In this document: positions 1,000-8,501 of the stretch, in pieces | Layout of the letters: each line of letters starts with the position of its first letter | Position numbering within the stretch: position 1 is the first letter of the stretch | Source: Naegleria gruberi | Taxonomy: Eukaryota | Direction: 5' to 3' (one strand) | DNA: 9,746 nt | Assembly (NCBI GenBank): GCA_000004985.1 | Contig: GG739033.1 | Program-made: the position numbers and the translations under genes | The notes under the pieces: generated by a model | What the model was told of the DNA's origin: nothing | Databases searched by the model: none | The model's input: the letters and a program-made list of their open reading frames with translations, nothing else

Positions 1000-2208
1000 N
1001 NNNNNNNNNNNNNNNNNNNNNNNNNNNNNNNNNNNNNNNNNNNNNNNNNNNNNNNNNNNNNNNNNNNNNNNNNNNNNNNNNNNNNNNNNNNNNNNNNNNN
1101 NNNNNNNNNNNNNNNNNNNNNNNNNNNNNNNNNNNNNNNNNNNNNNNNNNNNNNNNNNNNNNNNNNNNNNNNNNNNNNNNNNNNNNNNNNNNNNNNNNNN
1201 NNNNNNNNNNNNNNNNNNNNNNNNNNNNNNNNNNNNNNNNNNNNNNNNNNNNNNNNNNNNNNNNNNNNNNNNNNNNNNNNNNNNNNNNNNNNNNNNNNNN
1301 NNNNNNNNNNNNNNNNNNNNNNNNNNNNNNNNNNNNNNNNNNNNNNNNNNNNNNNNNNNNNNNNNNNNNNNNNNNNNNNNNNNNNNNNNNNNNNNNNNNN
1401 NNNNNNNNNNNNNNNNNNNNNNNNNNNNNNNNNNNNNNNNNNNNNNNNNNNNNNNNNNNNNNNNNNNNNNNNNNNNNNNNNNNNNNNNNNNNNNNNNNNN
1501 NNNNNNNNNNNNNNNNNNNNNNNNNNNNNNNNNNNNNNNNNNNNNNNNNNNNNNNNNNNNNNNNNNNNNNNNNNNNNNNNNNNNNNNNNNNNNNNNNNNN
1601 NNNNNNNNNNNNNNNNNNNNNNNNNNNNNNNNNNNNNNNNNNNNNNNNNNNNNNNNNNNNNNNNNNNNNNNNNNNNNNNNNNNNNNNNNNNNNNNNNNNN
1701 NNNNNNNNNNNNNNNNNNNNNNNNNNNNNNNNNNNNNNNNNNNNNNNNNNNNNNNNNNNNNNNNNNNNNNNNNNNNNNNNNNNNNNNNNNNNNNNNNNNN
1801 NNNNNNNNNNNNNNNNNNNNNNNNNNNNNNNNNNNNNNNNNNNNNNNNNNNNNNNNNNNNNNNNNNNNNNNNNNNNNNNNNNNNNNNNNNNNNNNNNNNN
1901 NNNNNNNNNNNNNNNNNNNNNNNNNNNNNNNNNNNNNNNNNNNNNNNNNNNNNNNNNNNNNNNNNNNNNNNNNNNNNNNNNNNNNNNNNNNNNNNNNNNN
2001 NNNNNNNNNNNNNNNNNNNNNNNNNNNNNNNNNNNNNNNNNNNNNNNNNNNNNNNNNNNNNNNNNNNNNNNNNNNNNNNNNNNNNNNNNNNNNNNNNNNN
2101 NNNNNNNNNNNNNNNNNNNNNNNNNNNNNNNNNNNNNNNNNNNNNNNNNNNNNNNNNNNNNNNNNNNNNNNNNNNNNNNNNNNNNNNNNNNNNNNNNNNN
2201 NNNNNNNN
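1000..2208. other. Assembly gap or masked region (1209 N).
   Basis: Run of n characters. Every ORF-track entry containing X residues across this span is an artefact. Confidence 1.
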
Positions 2209-2254: not shown

Positions 2255-3146
2255 ATGAGCAATGCGTGTATTAATAGTGATGATCATACCGAAGGACATC
2301 GCATAAAAGTTGAAAGTAGAATAATAGACTCTCCTACCAATACTTTTACGAATAGCGTTCCATCAGCACATCAACAATATGACCTGAATAATGATACTAG
2401 AAGAGAATATTCTTCATCATCATCGTCATTGGTATCATCAAGTATTCAATCAAGAGGTTTGGAAGGAATATTCTCTCAAAAGAATGTGGACACAATGATG
2501 AATAATATTATTCAGCAAATATTGTCAACATTATCTGTGCAACAAGAACGCATGAATAACATTGAGCAAAAGCAGGACCACGGTTTTGCATCCGGCAATA
2601 CATCATCCATGTTGGTGCCGAATGCATCCACAGACCAACACCAAAAAATACAAGCATGTACCTCCCATGTAAACCATCAACAACCTGAAACTCCATCATC
2701 CAATGCAAACCAGCAACAACTAGTTATGGATAGAGGTTCCACATCTTCATTCAATAATGGTAGTGGAGATGTTGGCCTGCAAGGTTCTTCTTCATTCCCA
2801 TCTTCATCTCATTCCTTATCCAATAATACCACCAATTCTTCTTCTTCCACCAGTACATCTAGCTCGTCATTTAATGATTCTAAAAAGTTCATGCTCTCCC
2901 CTGGTACTAATTCCTCCACCCTAGAATTTATCAATGCTCATAACAATCCTATGTTAGCATCATCTGCAAATCAACAACTTCATTCACACAATGATCAGCT
3001 ATCAGATGCTGGTATAAGTCAATTATTCGAGGAATGCAACCATTCAACATTCAACATTGAGCCGCATTCATCCTTGTCACTTACAAAATCCACATCTGAA
3101 TTCAACTTGGAAGATTATCGAGATTTATTCAGTGATGCCAGATCTG
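2255..3146 (+). CDS. 3'-truncated CDS (runs into gap) encoding an S/N/Q-rich low-complexity protein, MSNACINSDDHTEGHRIKVESRIIDSPTNTF...SSSSSSLVSSS...NNTTNSSSSTSTSSSS...EDYRDLFSDARS. A possible nuclear or regulatory protein of unknown family.
   Basis: 297 codons are open from the first ATG after an in-frame TAG at 2210-2212 up to the gap at 3147. The start context is A-rich (aaacaaatATGa). Codon usage is consistent across the ORF. The composition has homopolymeric Ser and Asn/Gln runs. No recognisable catalytic motif is in the visible part. Confidence 0.55.
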
Positions 3147-5213
3147 NNNNNNNNNNNNNNNNNNNNNNNNNNNNNNNNNNNNNNNNNNNNNNNNNNNNNN
3201 NNNNNNNNNNNNNNNNNNNNNNNNNNNNNNNNNNNNNNNNNNNNNNNNNNNNNNNNNNNNNNNNNNNNNNNNNNNNNNNNNNNNNNNNNNNNNNNNNNNN
3301 NNNNNNNNNNNNNNNNNNNNNNNNNNNNNNNNNNNNNNNNNNNNNNNNNNNNNNNNNNNNNNNNNNNNNNNNNNNNNNNNNNNNNNNNNNNNNNNNNNNN
3401 NNNNNNNNNNNNNNNNNNNNNNNNNNNNNNNNNNNNNNNNNNNNNNNNNNNNNNNNNNNNNNNNNNNNNNNNNNNNNNNNNNNNNNNNNNNNNNNNNNNN
3501 NNNNNNNNNNNNNNNNNNNNNNNNNNNNNNNNNNNNNNNNNNNNNNNNNNNNNNNNNNNNNNNNNNNNNNNNNNNNNNNNNNNNNNNNNNNNNNNNNNNN
3601 NNNNNNNNNNNNNNNNNNNNNNNNNNNNNNNNNNNNNNNNNNNNNNNNNNNNNNNNNNNNNNNNNNNNNNNNNNNNNNNNNNNNNNNNNNNNNNNNNNNN
3701 NNNNNNNNNNNNNNNNNNNNNNNNNNNNNNNNNNNNNNNNNNNNNNNNNNNNNNNNNNNNNNNNNNNNNNNNNNNNNNNNNNNNNNNNNNNNNNNNNNNN
3801 NNNNNNNNNNNNNNNNNNNNNNNNNNNNNNNNNNNNNNNNNNNNNNNNNNNNNNNNNNNNNNNNNNNNNNNNNNNNNNNNNNNNNNNNNNNNNNNNNNNN
3901 NNNNNNNNNNNNNNNNNNNNNNNNNNNNNNNNNNNNNNNNNNNNNNNNNNNNNNNNNNNNNNNNNNNNNNNNNNNNNNNNNNNNNNNNNNNNNNNNNNNN
4001 NNNNNNNNNNNNNNNNNNNNNNNNNNNNNNNNNNNNNNNNNNNNNNNNNNNNNNNNNNNNNNNNNNNNNNNNNNNNNNNNNNNNNNNNNNNNNNNNNNNN
4101 NNNNNNNNNNNNNNNNNNNNNNNNNNNNNNNNNNNNNNNNNNNNNNNNNNNNNNNNNNNNNNNNNNNNNNNNNNNNNNNNNNNNNNNNNNNNNNNNNNNN
4201 NNNNNNNNNNNNNNNNNNNNNNNNNNNNNNNNNNNNNNNNNNNNNNNNNNNNNNNNNNNNNNNNNNNNNNNNNNNNNNNNNNNNNNNNNNNNNNNNNNNN
4301 NNNNNNNNNNNNNNNNNNNNNNNNNNNNNNNNNNNNNNNNNNNNNNNNNNNNNNNNNNNNNNNNNNNNNNNNNNNNNNNNNNNNNNNNNNNNNNNNNNNN
4401 NNNNNNNNNNNNNNNNNNNNNNNNNNNNNNNNNNNNNNNNNNNNNNNNNNNNNNNNNNNNNNNNNNNNNNNNNNNNNNNNNNNNNNNNNNNNNNNNNNNN
4501 NNNNNNNNNNNNNNNNNNNNNNNNNNNNNNNNNNNNNNNNNNNNNNNNNNNNNNNNNNNNNNNNNNNNNNNNNNNNNNNNNNNNNNNNNNNNNNNNNNNN
4601 NNNNNNNNNNNNNNNNNNNNNNNNNNNNNNNNNNNNNNNNNNNNNNNNNNNNNNNNNNNNNNNNNNNNNNNNNNNNNNNNNNNNNNNNNNNNNNNNNNNN
4701 NNNNNNNNNNNNNNNNNNNNNNNNNNNNNNNNNNNNNNNNNNNNNNNNNNNNNNNNNNNNNNNNNNNNNNNNNNNNNNNNNNNNNNNNNNNNNNNNNNNN
4801 NNNNNNNNNNNNNNNNNNNNNNNNNNNNNNNNNNNNNNNNNNNNNNNNNNNNNNNNNNNNNNNNNNNNNNNNNNNNNNNNNNNNNNNNNNNNNNNNNNNN
4901 NNNNNNNNNNNNNNNNNNNNNNNNNNNNNNNNNNNNNNNNNNNNNNNNNNNNNNNNNNNNNNNNNNNNNNNNNNNNNNNNNNNNNNNNNNNNNNNNNNNN
5001 NNNNNNNNNNNNNNNNNNNNNNNNNNNNNNNNNNNNNNNNNNNNNNNNNNNNNNNNNNNNNNNNNNNNNNNNNNNNNNNNNNNNNNNNNNNNNNNNNNNN
5101 NNNNNNNNNNNNNNNNNNNNNNNNNNNNNNNNNNNNNNNNNNNNNNNNNNNNNNNNNNNNNNNNNNNNNNNNNNNNNNNNNNNNNNNNNNNNNNNNNNNN
5201 NNNNNNNNNNNNN
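3147..5213. other. Assembly gap or masked region (2067 N) that swallows the 3' parts of the two convergent genes.
   Basis: Run of n characters. Confidence 1.
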
Positions 5214-5808
5214 TATCCACAACTCCTCTATCTACACCACTGTACACATCATTGATAAAACTTCCATCGTAAACTTTGATCAATTGTCCAAAAAGTTTAA
5301 AACAATTCTGAGGTGAAATGTTCATTTGAATTTCATGCTTCAAATGTGAAGCTAATGAACCTTGAATCATGTATTTTTGTGAGAAAATTAGGAGGGAGAG
5401 ACCTTCTTCATCGAGTGAGTATTCTAAACTACCAGTGTAAAAGCTTTTTACAATTTTGTAAAGTGCTGTTTCTTCGAATAAATCATCAAGGATCAGTTGA
5501 CCACATAAATTCTCTGAAAAATTGTTGGAGGAGAAGAGTGTTTGGAAGAATTCAGAATTTATGGATAGAATGCCTTTGTAAACTGAAAGAGTTTGTTGTA
5601 ATTTTGTAAGAACAATTTGAAAATCTGAAAATTGTGAATTGTCGAATAATTTTGCAGTGAAATTCGAAACATCCTGAACGTAAACTTTCTTATCTTCATA
5701 GGAACGGTTAGTTGAGGATTGAAGGAAGGCTGGAACACTAGAAACTGATGAACGAGACATTTTTTTCTTATTGAAAATTGTTTCGTTTAAGAATTTTTCT
5801 TTTATCAT
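5214..5808 (-). CDS. 3'-truncated CDS (runs into gap) whose N-terminal part is a BTB/POZ domain. The likely true start is the ATG at 5760 (MSRSSVSS...); the alternative upstream ATG at 5808 gives MIKEKFLNETIFNKKKMSRSS....
   Basis: The ORF is open from 5808 down to the gap. The segment ...SDFQIVLTKLQQTLSVYKGILSINSEFFQTLFSSNNFSENLCGQLILDDLFEETALYKIVKSFYTGSLEYSLDEEGLSLLIFSQKYMIQGSLASHLKHEI... matches the BTB/POZ consensus (D-[VF]-x-[LF]-x-V ... aHKavLaarSpyFkamF ... ieLddv...lLefiYTGel ... lLaaAdkyqi). The ATG at 5760 has the context aaaaaaaATGtct, identical to the LOG gene start at 7232. The ATG at 5808 has a poor context. Confidence 0.75.
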
Positions 5809-6061: not shown

Positions 6062-6720
6062 TAGATCGCGGGAGGTTGATATAAATTCGTCGATCCGCTG
6101 GACCAGAAGAAAATTTGCAAGTTGAGTGTCAACTTTGAAAAATATTCAAAAAAATATTATCAGCCAAACATAACAATGCAGTGAAACTACATAGTTTTAC
6201 CCATCGAGAAAACTGGCTTTATTTTGCATAACGTGGAATAGTATCATCATTAGTACTAATTTTAGTAGAATTGATGAACAACAATATGGTGTTTGGCTAA
6301 TGCTAATACACCAACAACAACAAGAAATAATAGTAATTATATTTGCGGAAGGCTCAAGAATGAATGGTTGCTGTTACCAATATTGGCTCTGTTTTTGTTG
6401 TTGGAGTTTGGCATCAGTTCTTGATTGGATTATTGTTGGTATTCTGTTGAGTTCCCAAATTTTCACAATAAAAGACTTGTTCAATATATTTGTGTTGGTT
6501 TCCTGCATGAAATGTTACCTCATTACTCGCAGAGTATTCAAGAGAAGGAATAGAGTCAATATTGGTGTTCTATCTTTGCTTGTGAGCAAGATTACCGACT
6601 TGTAAAAATTTTCAGATACCAAGAAATTTTGGCAAAGTCGAACTGGTATCCAATGGCTGGTATTTTGGACTTGGAAAAAAAAATTTCTGGCCCATTTTTT
6701 CAAAGACTTCCCGCGATCTA
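6062..6720. mobile_element. 659-bp non-autonomous DNA transposon or MITE with terminal inverted repeats, probably hAT-like. It is flanked by an 8-bp target-site duplication.
   Basis: The left end TAGATCGCGGGAgGT (6062-6076) matches the reverse complement of the right end aCtTCCCGCGATCTA (6706-6720). The outermost 12 bp are perfect and 14 of 15 match. Extended imperfect subterminal similarity is present: left TGGACCAGAAgaaAATTTgCAAG at ~6098-6122 against the reverse complement of the right TGGGCCAGAAATTTTtttttCCAAG at ~6668-6692. Perfect direct repeats TTCCTTAA lie immediately outside both ends at 6054-6061 and 6721-6728. The interior has no credible transposase. The only ORF is 101 aa, hydrophobic, with a polyQ run. 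Confidence 0.6.
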
Positions 6721-6728
6721 TTCCTTAA
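6721..6728. repeat. Right target-site duplication TTCCTTAA of the MITE.
   Basis: Identical to 6054-6061. The inferred empty site is ...aaaTTCCTTAAtatataatttt.... Confidence 0.55.
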
Positions 6729-6939
6729 TATATAATTTTCTGTATTCTTGCATTTTCGTACCGAGTTAACTTATTGATTCACTAATTTCTTTCATAGGAC
6801 TAATAAATTTCCAAATTCTCAATACGAATTGAAAAATTGTACAAAACAATTTCACCTTCCAAATAAATACATTTTCTCACCTCCAAATATGGCCATACTC
6901 AAACATTATCGAAATTCACAACAATTGCTCAGCCATTCT

Positions 6940-7231
6940 CCAAACCGACAAGATTATTCAAACACCTACCCATTCATCATCCATTCCTCAACTTTCCTTC
7001 ATCCAATTCCTCTTGCTCATCATTTCCGAACCTCGCCATTCATCATGCAACATCACCTCATCACCATTTTTGAACCAATCAAAATGCAACCCTCAACAAC
7101 AATATTTCCATTCTCACAATGCAACATCACTTCCCAAACAGCCCATTCTCACAATTCACAAGCAAAATGCATTTTCAGAATCTGCATTGTCGTTGTTGAA
7201 TCAAATACACAACAACAACGCATAGAAAAAA
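6940..7231 (+). promoter_or_regulatory. G-depleted, CA/CT-rich leader immediately upstream of the LOG start codon. A putative 5' UTR or core-promoter region.
   Basis: Positions 6961-7140 contain only about 7 G in 180 nt on the plus strand and about 30% C. This is strong strand asymmetry. The ORFs called here (6829-7239, 7013-7225) have His/Pro/Ser/Thr/Ile/Phe-dominated composition with almost no Gly, Asp or Glu, as expected from the base skew rather than from coding. Confidence 0.35.
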
Positions 7232-7439
7232 ATGTCTAGCCAACCAACCAATTCAACATGCTCTTCTGATTGTTCTGCTTCAACTGTTGCTGCAGAAAAG
7301 CCAAAACTTTCCTTTGTTGTTTATTGTGCTTCGAGTAGTAAATTGGATGAAAAGTATTTTAGTGCTGCAACACAAGTTGGTGAGACTTGTGCTCAGAATG
7401 GAATTGGAGTGAGATATGGAGGTGGTAATTGTGGTTTGA
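7232..7439 (+). CDS. LOG: LOG-family protein (cytokinin riboside 5'-monophosphate phosphoribohydrolase / 'lysine decarboxylase-like', Pfam Lysine_decarbox type), exon 1. Translation: MSSQPTNSTCSSDCSASTVAAEKPKLSFVVYCASSSKLDEKYFSAATQVGETCAQNGIGVRYGGGNCGL, ending on a split codon.
   Basis: KLSFVVYCASSSKLDEKYFSAATQVGETCAQNGIGVRYGGGNCGL aligns with the LOG N-terminal signature (plant LOG1 [45 protein letters not shown]). The start context is gaaaaaaATGtct. The exon ends at 7439 in phase 1, directly before the GTAAGT donor at 7440-7445. Confidence 0.8.
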
Positions 7440-7577
7440 GTAAGTATTTATTATGAGAATGCAACTTTTAATTATTCTATTTAATGTTCAATATATTTAA
7501 TACAATTTAATAATAATATTGAAAAATATTTAATATACGTCTGATGATGAAATAAATTATCGGAATGCATACAATAG
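7440..7577 (+). other. Spliceosomal intron of the LOG gene: 138 bp, GTAAGT...acaatAG, about 80% AT.
   Basis: A canonical GTAAGT donor follows the exon 1 end. An AG acceptor sits at 7576-7577 after an AT-rich tract. Splicing 7439|7578 joins a+tg into an ATG (Met) codon. This recreates the conserved LOG motif GGGxxGLMG and keeps the downstream frame TVAKSCMDK open. Confidence 0.65.
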
Positions 7578-7609
7578 TGNGTACTGTTGCCAAATCATGC
7601 ATGGATAAG
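7578..7609 (+). CDS. LOG: LOG-family gene exon 2 (start only): (M)-x-TVAKSCMDK... It continues into the gap at 7610-8337; the 3' end is not determinable.
   Basis: The frame after splicing gives GL-M-[ngt: Gly if n=g]-TVAKSCMDK. This matches the LOG consensus GLMGxVAxxvxxxGG. The same frame is the one called as ORF 7565-8371 in the track. Confidence 0.6.
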
Positions 7610-8337
7610 NNNNNNNNNNNNNNNNNNNNNNNNNNNNNNNNNNNNNNNNNNNNNNNNNNNNNNNNNNNNNNNNNNNNNNNNNNNNNNNNNNNNNNNNNNN
7701 NNNNNNNNNNNNNNNNNNNNNNNNNNNNNNNNNNNNNNNNNNNNNNNNNNNNNNNNNNNNNNNNNNNNNNNNNNNNNNNNNNNNNNNNNNNNNNNNNNNN
7801 NNNNNNNNNNNNNNNNNNNNNNNNNNNNNNNNNNNNNNNNNNNNNNNNNNNNNNNNNNNNNNNNNNNNNNNNNNNNNNNNNNNNNNNNNNNNNNNNNNNN
7901 NNNNNNNNNNNNNNNNNNNNNNNNNNNNNNNNNNNNNNNNNNNNNNNNNNNNNNNNNNNNNNNNNNNNNNNNNNNNNNNNNNNNNNNNNNNNNNNNNNNN
8001 NNNNNNNNNNNNNNNNNNNNNNNNNNNNNNNNNNNNNNNNNNNNNNNNNNNNNNNNNNNNNNNNNNNNNNNNNNNNNNNNNNNNNNNNNNNNNNNNNNNN
8101 NNNNNNNNNNNNNNNNNNNNNNNNNNNNNNNNNNNNNNNNNNNNNNNNNNNNNNNNNNNNNNNNNNNNNNNNNNNNNNNNNNNNNNNNNNNNNNNNNNNN
8201 NNNNNNNNNNNNNNNNNNNNNNNNNNNNNNNNNNNNNNNNNNNNNNNNNNNNNNNNNNNNNNNNNNNNNNNNNNNNNNNNNNNNNNNNNNNNNNNNNNNN
8301 NNNNNNNNNNNNNNNNNNNNNNNNNNNNNNNNNNNNN
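7610..8337. other. Assembly gap or masked region (728 N), plus a single n at 7580.
   Basis: Run of n characters. Confidence 1.
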
Positions 8338-8501
8338 TACAAAAAGTAAAAACAATAAAAAAGTTAAATGACATGATTAATAATTCAATATGACAATGCT
8401 CGATCTGTATTTTGACATTGAAAATTTCTATGACATTTGTCACATTAAAAAAATCAAAAAATGATTAGAGTGATATCCTACTTTTTTATGTTGTTGTGTA
8501 G

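Follow-up and report, generated by a model that had tools for sequence, protein, structure and literature searches.

The interval 7232-7609 of a 9,746-nucleotide stretch of Naegleria gruberi DNA (the window hereafter) raises the question of whether two reading frames that an ORF search keeps apart are pieces of one split gene. The plain ORF list carries 7232-7456 (74 aa) and 7565-8371 (mostly X) as separate entries. A preliminary description of the window had pointed to these same two ORFs, joined them across an intron and assigned the product to the LOG family; it had also argued that the source was not a metazoan, and Naegleria (Heterolobosea) bears this out. Our reading, to which we assign a probability of roughly 0.9, is that 7232-7609 is the 5′ part of the single-copy type-I LOG-family gene encoding XP_002680159.1, spliced at 7439^7578.

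A split methionine codon in the GGGxxGLMG motif

The features of the gene that can be read in the window are collected in Table 1. ATG 7232-7234 is the first possible initiator, since it is preceded by an in-frame stop codon. Its A-rich context (aaaaaATGTCT) is common to the window gene and to an orthologue on a metagenome contig, L001, that is described below. Exon 1 codes for a nonconserved N-terminal extension of ~25 residues, followed by beta1 (FVVYCASS), alpha1, beta2 and GGGNCGL, and without splicing its frame stops at TGA 7454-7456.

Table 1. Positions in the window of the start, exons, first intron and masked bases of the LOG-family gene
Feature	Position	Strand	Description
In-frame TAG stop	7223..7225	+	6 nt 5′ of the start codon; sequence read directly
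Exon 1	7232..7439	+	208 nt = 69 codons + first base 'a' of the Met70 codon
Intron 1	7440..7577	+	138 nt, GTAAGT…CAATAG, phase 1, in the Met codon of GGGxxGLMG
Visible start of exon 2	7578..7609	+	TG completes Met70, then NGT (Gly71, first base unread) and TVAKSCMDK
Ambiguous base n	7580	+	Codon 71, position 1; NGT = Gly, Ser, Arg or Cys
N run	7610..8337	+	728 N; rest of the gene probably inside

The preliminary description had the exon ending on an 'a', a 138-bp intron running from GTAAGT to caatAG, and a following 'tg' restoring ATG, and every one of these coordinates and bases agreed with the sequence. It had further given the spliced product as GL-M-G-TVAKSCMDK. The methionine and TVAKSCMDK can be read as such; the glycine cannot, its codon beginning with n, but it is the right residue according to the public N. 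gruberi protein, which has Gly at codon 71, and the L001 orthologue, which has GGA. We infer that base 7580 must be G to give this family-invariant Gly71.

We enumerated all GT…AG pairs that leave a frame open from ATG 7232 to 7609, and 17 models survived. The acceptor at 7577 was used by all 17, and no other acceptor leaves a frame open as far as the N run. The models were scored with a profile HMM built exclusively from 118 intronless bacterial homologues from outside Naegleria. Removal of 7440-7577 ranked first of the 17 at 59.5 bits, against 46.1 bits for the unspliced reading and 45.3 bits for the second-best splice; the alternative splice readings were rejected. On TIGR00730, the unspliced sequence scored 31.0 bits (E 1.9e-7, model positions 3-44) and the spliced fragment scored 46.3 bits (E 3.9e-12, model positions 3-54); the 11 residues that follow the acceptor thus add ~15 bits and lengthen the alignment by exactly 10 model positions. 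Searched against the PDB, the fragment had Claviceps LOG as its top match (5ajt, E 2e-8), aligned unbroken through GGGxxGLMG-VA. The intron itself has canonical GT-AG boundaries, restores the frame and differs in composition from its surroundings, with 18% GC against 39% and 41% in the flanking exons.

A homology search with the fragment returned a single metagenome protein (P0001), and its contig, L001, carries a complete orthologue. This gene is interrupted at the identical position and in the identical phase, TTGA^gtaagt…109 nt…aaatag^TGGGAACT; the corresponding intron in Naegleria lovaniensis is offset by 2 nt, and a further related locus, L163, lacks it. Spliced by hand, the L001 gene yields 222 residues (TIGR00730, 184 bits; PF03641, 137 bits) that are 84% identical to the N. 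gruberi protein (P0002) and 77% identical to the N. lovaniensis protein (P0003). Between the window and L001, the exons are conserved and the introns are not. The last 132 nt of exon 1 align without gaps at 82% identity, and 28 of the 31 readable bases of exon 2 match.

The existence of the plain ORF 7232-7456 would also allow a reading without any intron, in which a truncated gene or pseudogene gives a 74-residue product ending at the TGA and the downstream match is coincidental. We consider this very improbable in view of the TIGR00730 score and model positions gained on splicing, the retention of the exon 2 bases in L001 next to an intron that does not rise above background, the canonical GTAAGT and YAG signals with the accompanying drop in GC, and the identical splice in the public annotation. 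The preferred reading is that the primary transcript would be spliced in vivo at 7439^7578.

The annotated protein, its masked half and its family

The spliced product is identical to residues 1-80 of XP_002680159.1 (80/80 if n is G), a 220-aa protein of strain NEG-M that also stands as EFC47415.1 and UniProt D2V6A9 (P0002). The two are the same gene, with no detectable difference between them; the window masks residues 81-220 and has n at 7580. The gene and its splice are therefore already in public databases, and this is an ordinary annotated gene, not one missed by annotation. The earlier gene model was internally consistent and, as claimed, absent from the plain ORF track, yet a public model for it existed. 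It shows that a correct split-codon gene model could be recovered from raw sequence and matters little otherwise; the side leads taken up below (a bacterial affinity and the shift and absence of intron 1) carry more potential than the gene model does.

In public records the protein stands as "lysine decarboxylase," a known misannotation for which LOG-family phosphoribohydrolase would be the proper name. The older name is a legacy misnomer for LOG-family proteins (PMC4979012, PMC8989509), whose members are without lysine decarboxylase activity (PMC4979012). In the literature on Naegleria together with cytokinin, lysine decarboxylase or horizontal transfer/Bacteroidetes, we found no discussion of this gene.

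N makes up 41% of the window (1000-2208, 3147-5213, 7610-8337 and base 7580). The public protein contains no X residues and spans both the masked part and the Gly of the 7580 codon. Since the public record thus holds sequence at 7580 and across 7610-8337, the N there do not mark genuine assembly gaps. For all that follows, the catalytic half, which is masked in the window, was taken from the public protein. Its 140 residues beyond residue 80 require 423 nt with the stop codon, which together with a second intron can be accommodated in the 728 masked bases. We infer that 7610-8337 holds the rest of exon 2 (with MHERK and PGGVGTFEE), a phase-1 intron 2 in the Val codon of EVITW, exon 3 and the stop. 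A PGGxGTxxE motif had been predicted to lie hidden in this run, and the public protein does have PGGVGTFEE, at residues 131-139, with a length that suits the run.

Full-length XP_002680159.1 scored 186.1 bits on TIGR00730 (cut-off, 96.35) and 135.5 bits on PF03641 (Lysine_decarbox; cut-off, 27), and through the 80/80 identity the proposed LOG-family membership of the window gene holds. A profile search on the spliced translation, as proposed in the preliminary description, was less clear-cut. TIGR00730 matched, but the 80-residue fragment stayed under the cut-off (46.3 versus 96.35 bits) because 140 of the 220 residues are masked, and Pfam returned LDcluster4 alone, below threshold (17.9-18.5 bits versus 26.3). 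PF03641 cannot match here, since its model begins at residue 70 and the visible fragment ends at residue 80.

The motifs of the family are all present. GGGNCGLM(G) occupies residues 63-71 and becomes readable in the window only once the transcript is spliced, its last Gly codon being NGT. MHERK lies at residues 113-117, and PGGVGTFEE recurs in L001, N. lovaniensis and L163. In CgLOG, the catalytic residues are R99 and E122, the AMP contacts are S19, G116-T119, E121, M96 and K100, and the prenyl pocket is formed by M96, H97, K100, E125 and W129 (PMC4979012). Aligned with the Naegleria protein, M96/H97/R99/K100 fall on MHERK, G116-T119/E121/E122 fall on PGGVGTFEE, E125 and W129 correspond to E142 and W146, and S19 corresponds to the Ser residues of CASS (residues 32-35), so that all catalytic and binding residues are conserved. 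The catalytic pair, R116 and E139, is invariant across a 19-sequence alignment, and the prenyl-pocket residues are M113, H114, K117, E142 and W146.

Among solved LOGs, XP_002680159.1 matched AtLOG3 in sequence (2a33, E 1e-40, 143 bits). An AlphaFold2 model (pLDDT 85, pTM 0.81) has a Rossmann-type order of strands and helices, with the N-terminal 25 residues predicted to be disordered. The top 21 Foldseek matches to this model were all type-I LOG or LOG-like chains, with best TM-scores of 0.85-0.90 normalised to the target; type-II LOG structures (1wek, 5wq3, 5zi9) and PpnN ranked lower. The predicted fold is closest to type I and is without the extra N-terminal helix of type II, and the pocket has the M/H/K/E/W set of subgroup Ia. 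Predicted fold and pocket residues together support the assignment as a type-I LOG, and the product may be a dimer, as expected for this class.

The solved type-Ia enzymes AtLOG3 (2A33), AtLOG8 (1YDH), CgLOG (5ITS), PaLOG (5ZBJ) and Claviceps LOG (5AJT) share with the Naegleria protein the fold, the GGGxxGxMG, MHxRK and PGGxGTxxE motifs, the catalytic Arg and Glu and the five prenyl-pocket residues, although their identity to it in structural alignments is just 32-39%. The Naegleria protein differs from them in its N-terminal extension of ~25 residues, in CASS instead of CGSS in beta1, in an IPKFM…W segment and in a C-terminal W-D-x-N…F tail. The last three of these features are common to the Naegleria protein and the Bacteroidota-type proteins discussed below and are not found in plant LOGs.

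Proposed activity and role

By analogy with characterised LOGs, the 220-residue product would be a Rossmann-fold nucleotide N-glycosidase (phosphoribohydrolase). It would cleave the N9-C1′ bond in N6-substituted AMP, that is, in cytokinin riboside 5′-monophosphates, and probably in AMP itself, with ribose 5-phosphate and the free base as products. Catalysis would fall to R116, the Arg of MHERK, together with E139, the last Glu of PGGVGTFEE. The substrate range is predicted, and any signalling role is putative.

The preliminary description had called the gene cytokinin-activating. LOG-family membership and the pocket residues agree with this term, and cytokinin-specific activity may be proposed from them; the full-length protein, however, did not reach the NCBIfam cytokinin-LOG equivalog NF058542 (131.1 bits versus a cut-off of 300), and for this reason it is not classed as equivalent to the bacterial enzyme that this model describes. 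The term thus applies at the level of the family.

The same gene model would serve equally for a housekeeping purine-nucleotide nucleosidase, active in the turnover of AMP or of tRNA-derived modified AMP and in purine salvage, without cytokinin signalling. The missed NF058542 cut-off suits such a role, as does the nucleotide nucleosidase PpnN, which belongs to the same family. A CHASE-domain kinase, the cytokinin-receptor type, is not reported among the 24 histidine kinases of N. gruberi (PMC6324907), so that a hormone-like role would be without a known receptor. The LOG of Dictyostelium acts on cytokinin nucleotides and on AMP, with a broad specificity that was measured, and its authors read the retained AMP activity as an original, non-cytokinin role (PMC11228631). 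On the other side, all five of the proposed prenyl-pocket residues (M, H, K, E and W) are as in the cytokinin-active AtLOG3, CgLOG and CpLOG, and N. gruberi has a cytokinin oxidase homologue, reported as the sole one outside land plants and bacteria (PMC7049301), which points to real cytokinin metabolism. Weighing these, we regard a purely housekeeping role as the less probable alternative, but one with a substantial chance of being correct.

The Dictyostelium discoideum enzyme, DdLog (DDB_G0281309), is comparable: a type-Ia LOG encoded by a single two-exon gene in a soil amoeba, and the sole amoebal LOG with biochemistry. By its published description it is set apart from the Naegleria protein in affinity, being closest to plant LOGs (47-50%), whereas the Naegleria protein is closest to bacterial ones.

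Related loci, a displaced intron and bacterial relatives

The N. lovaniensis orthologue (P0003, C9374_000820; named "Cytokinin riboside 5′-monophosphate phosphoribohydrolase" in UniRef) is 74% identical to the N. gruberi protein and has the same motifs and two introns. Its intron 1 (L002, 8205-8327) is in phase 0 and lies 2 nt downstream, TTGATG^gtgagt…atttag^GGCACT, whereas in the window and in L001 (252-360) the intron is in phase 1 within the ATG. The model spliced by hand equals the annotated protein, and no other GT-AG pair works. Across the junction, all three proteins have the same sequence, GLMGT.

A fourth Naegleria-like LOG gene was found in metagenomes at L163 (831-1485), and also in L164 and L165. 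Intron 1 is absent from L163, where ggt ttg atg ggt acc is contiguous. Intron 2, in contrast, is kept there. It lies in phase 1 in the Val codon of EVITW and measures 49 nt in L001, 97 nt in N. lovaniensis, where codon and phase are identical to those of the related loci, and 37 nt in L163-L165. This pattern implies a gain of intron 1 within the Naegleria lineage or its loss from L163. At 67-71%, the identity of the L163 product to the other three lies below that among those three (72-85%), which suggests that L163 is the outgroup. When the N. gruberi protein was used to scan metagenomes, the loci returned were all uninterrupted and of bacterial type (37-51% identity), with no further Naegleria-like ones among them.

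The 2-nt offset of intron 1 between congeners resembles "intron sliding," a phenomenon that has rarely been documented. The introns of L001 and N. lovaniensis have a stretch of 15 identical nt in common, TTTGAAAATTAATTT, in a local alignment whose score was attained in 5 of 500 shuffles; for the remaining two intron 1 pairs, scores did not exceed those of their own shuffles. This lends weak support to a single intron having slid, as opposed to two separate gains.

Beyond Naegleria, the best matches were uninterrupted proteins of ~192 aa with 50-56% identity and about 220 bits, the named ones coming from Paludibacter, other Bacteroidota and Ignavibacteria/Ignavibacteriota. An exhaustive HMMER scan of 1.84 billion representatives placed the L163 product first and bacterial-type proteins after it. 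The Naegleria protein is closer to the Bacteroidota-type proteins (loci L083-L162) than to the plant, Bacillus and Pseudomonas LOGs compared; its identity to the Arabidopsis LOG structures is 36-39%. These 192-aa TIGR00730 proteins of Bacteroidota and Ignavibacteriota (e.g., Paludibacter spp.) are, at 52-56% identity, its closest relatives outside Naegleria and differ from it in being intronless and in lacking both the N-terminal extension and a two-residue insertion after a conserved Trp (W-GM-E). To our knowledge, none of them has been characterised biochemically.

A neighbor-joining distance tree was built over about 180 columns from four characterised LOGs and 140 bacterial sequences, the latter picked for their similarity to the Naegleria protein. 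Naegleria fell within the bacterial clade, apart from both Arabidopsis LOGs, YvdD and PaLOG, in 200 of 200 bootstraps. The bacterial affinity may reflect horizontal transfer. We treat this as a lead, not a finding, because the bacterial sampling was biased, no other protist or fungal sequences were included and a distance method was applied to ~180 columns. LOGs in general are assumed to be vertically descended (PMC7049301).

Bacterial contamination of the assembly, in place of a eukaryotic gene, would also account for nearest non-Naegleria relatives that are bacterial, at up to about 55% identity. It is extremely improbable. Spliceosomal-type introns interrupt the gene in four related eukaryote-like loci, and its base composition is Naegleria-like. 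It also sits on scaffolds of 665 kb in N. gruberi and 738 kb in N. lovaniensis among eukaryotic neighbours (USP, PX and protein kinase), with a BTB gene nearby in the window. Together, introns and scaffold context in effect refute contamination.

For a eukaryotic gene with this affinity, a tentative and rather unlikely joint history would be that a Bacteroidota-type gene was acquired by horizontal transfer, gained intron 2 and then intron 1, and underwent the 2-nt slide between the N. gruberi and N. lovaniensis lineages. Intron 2 would come first because it is common to all four related loci, and intron 1 later because L163 is without it, in contrast to the N. gruberi, L001 and N. lovaniensis genes. 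Were this history true, the gene and the reportedly Chlamydiae-derived cytokinin oxidase would form a cytokinin-metabolising module assembled from bacterial genes. Should the affinity to bacteria hold in a proper phylogeny, the locus would be a compact and datable case of a transferred gene with an intron gain and an intron shift of 2 nt. It would also strengthen the case for cytokinin synthesis or breakdown in a free-living relative of the pathogen N. fowleri, in view of the cytokinin oxidase already reported from N. gruberi (PMC7049301) and of a "cytokinin dehydrogenase" listed in N. fowleri vesicle proteomes (PMC9312180).

Gene order around the locus was compared by matching 17 kb of N. lovaniensis sequence (L002, 1-16877) with the readable ORFs of the window, and LOG exon 1 was the sole match. 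The N. lovaniensis neighbourhood contains USP, AMP-binding, PX, PhoPQ-related and kinase genes. The two species do not seem to share the local gene order, in a comparison from which the masked 41% of the window drops out.

Scanning the window for Rfam families and tRNAs gave no hits. Two other ORFs in the window run into masked sequence. On the minus strand, a BTB/POZ ORF (5214-5808; PF00651, E 1.2e-9) starts at 5808 and enters the N run at 5213. On the plus strand, a low-complexity ORF rich in Ser, Asn and Gln (2255-3146), with no Pfam match, begins at ATG 2255 and enters the N run at 3147. Just upstream of the LOG start lies a tract of ~530 nt (6700-7230) that is strongly depleted of G on the plus strand (2-8% G, about 30% C; GC skew about −0.6) and contains several weak 20-nt direct repeats. 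The 37 upstream bases available in L001 are likewise G-poor, and the upstream region in N. lovaniensis, at 20% G, is not.
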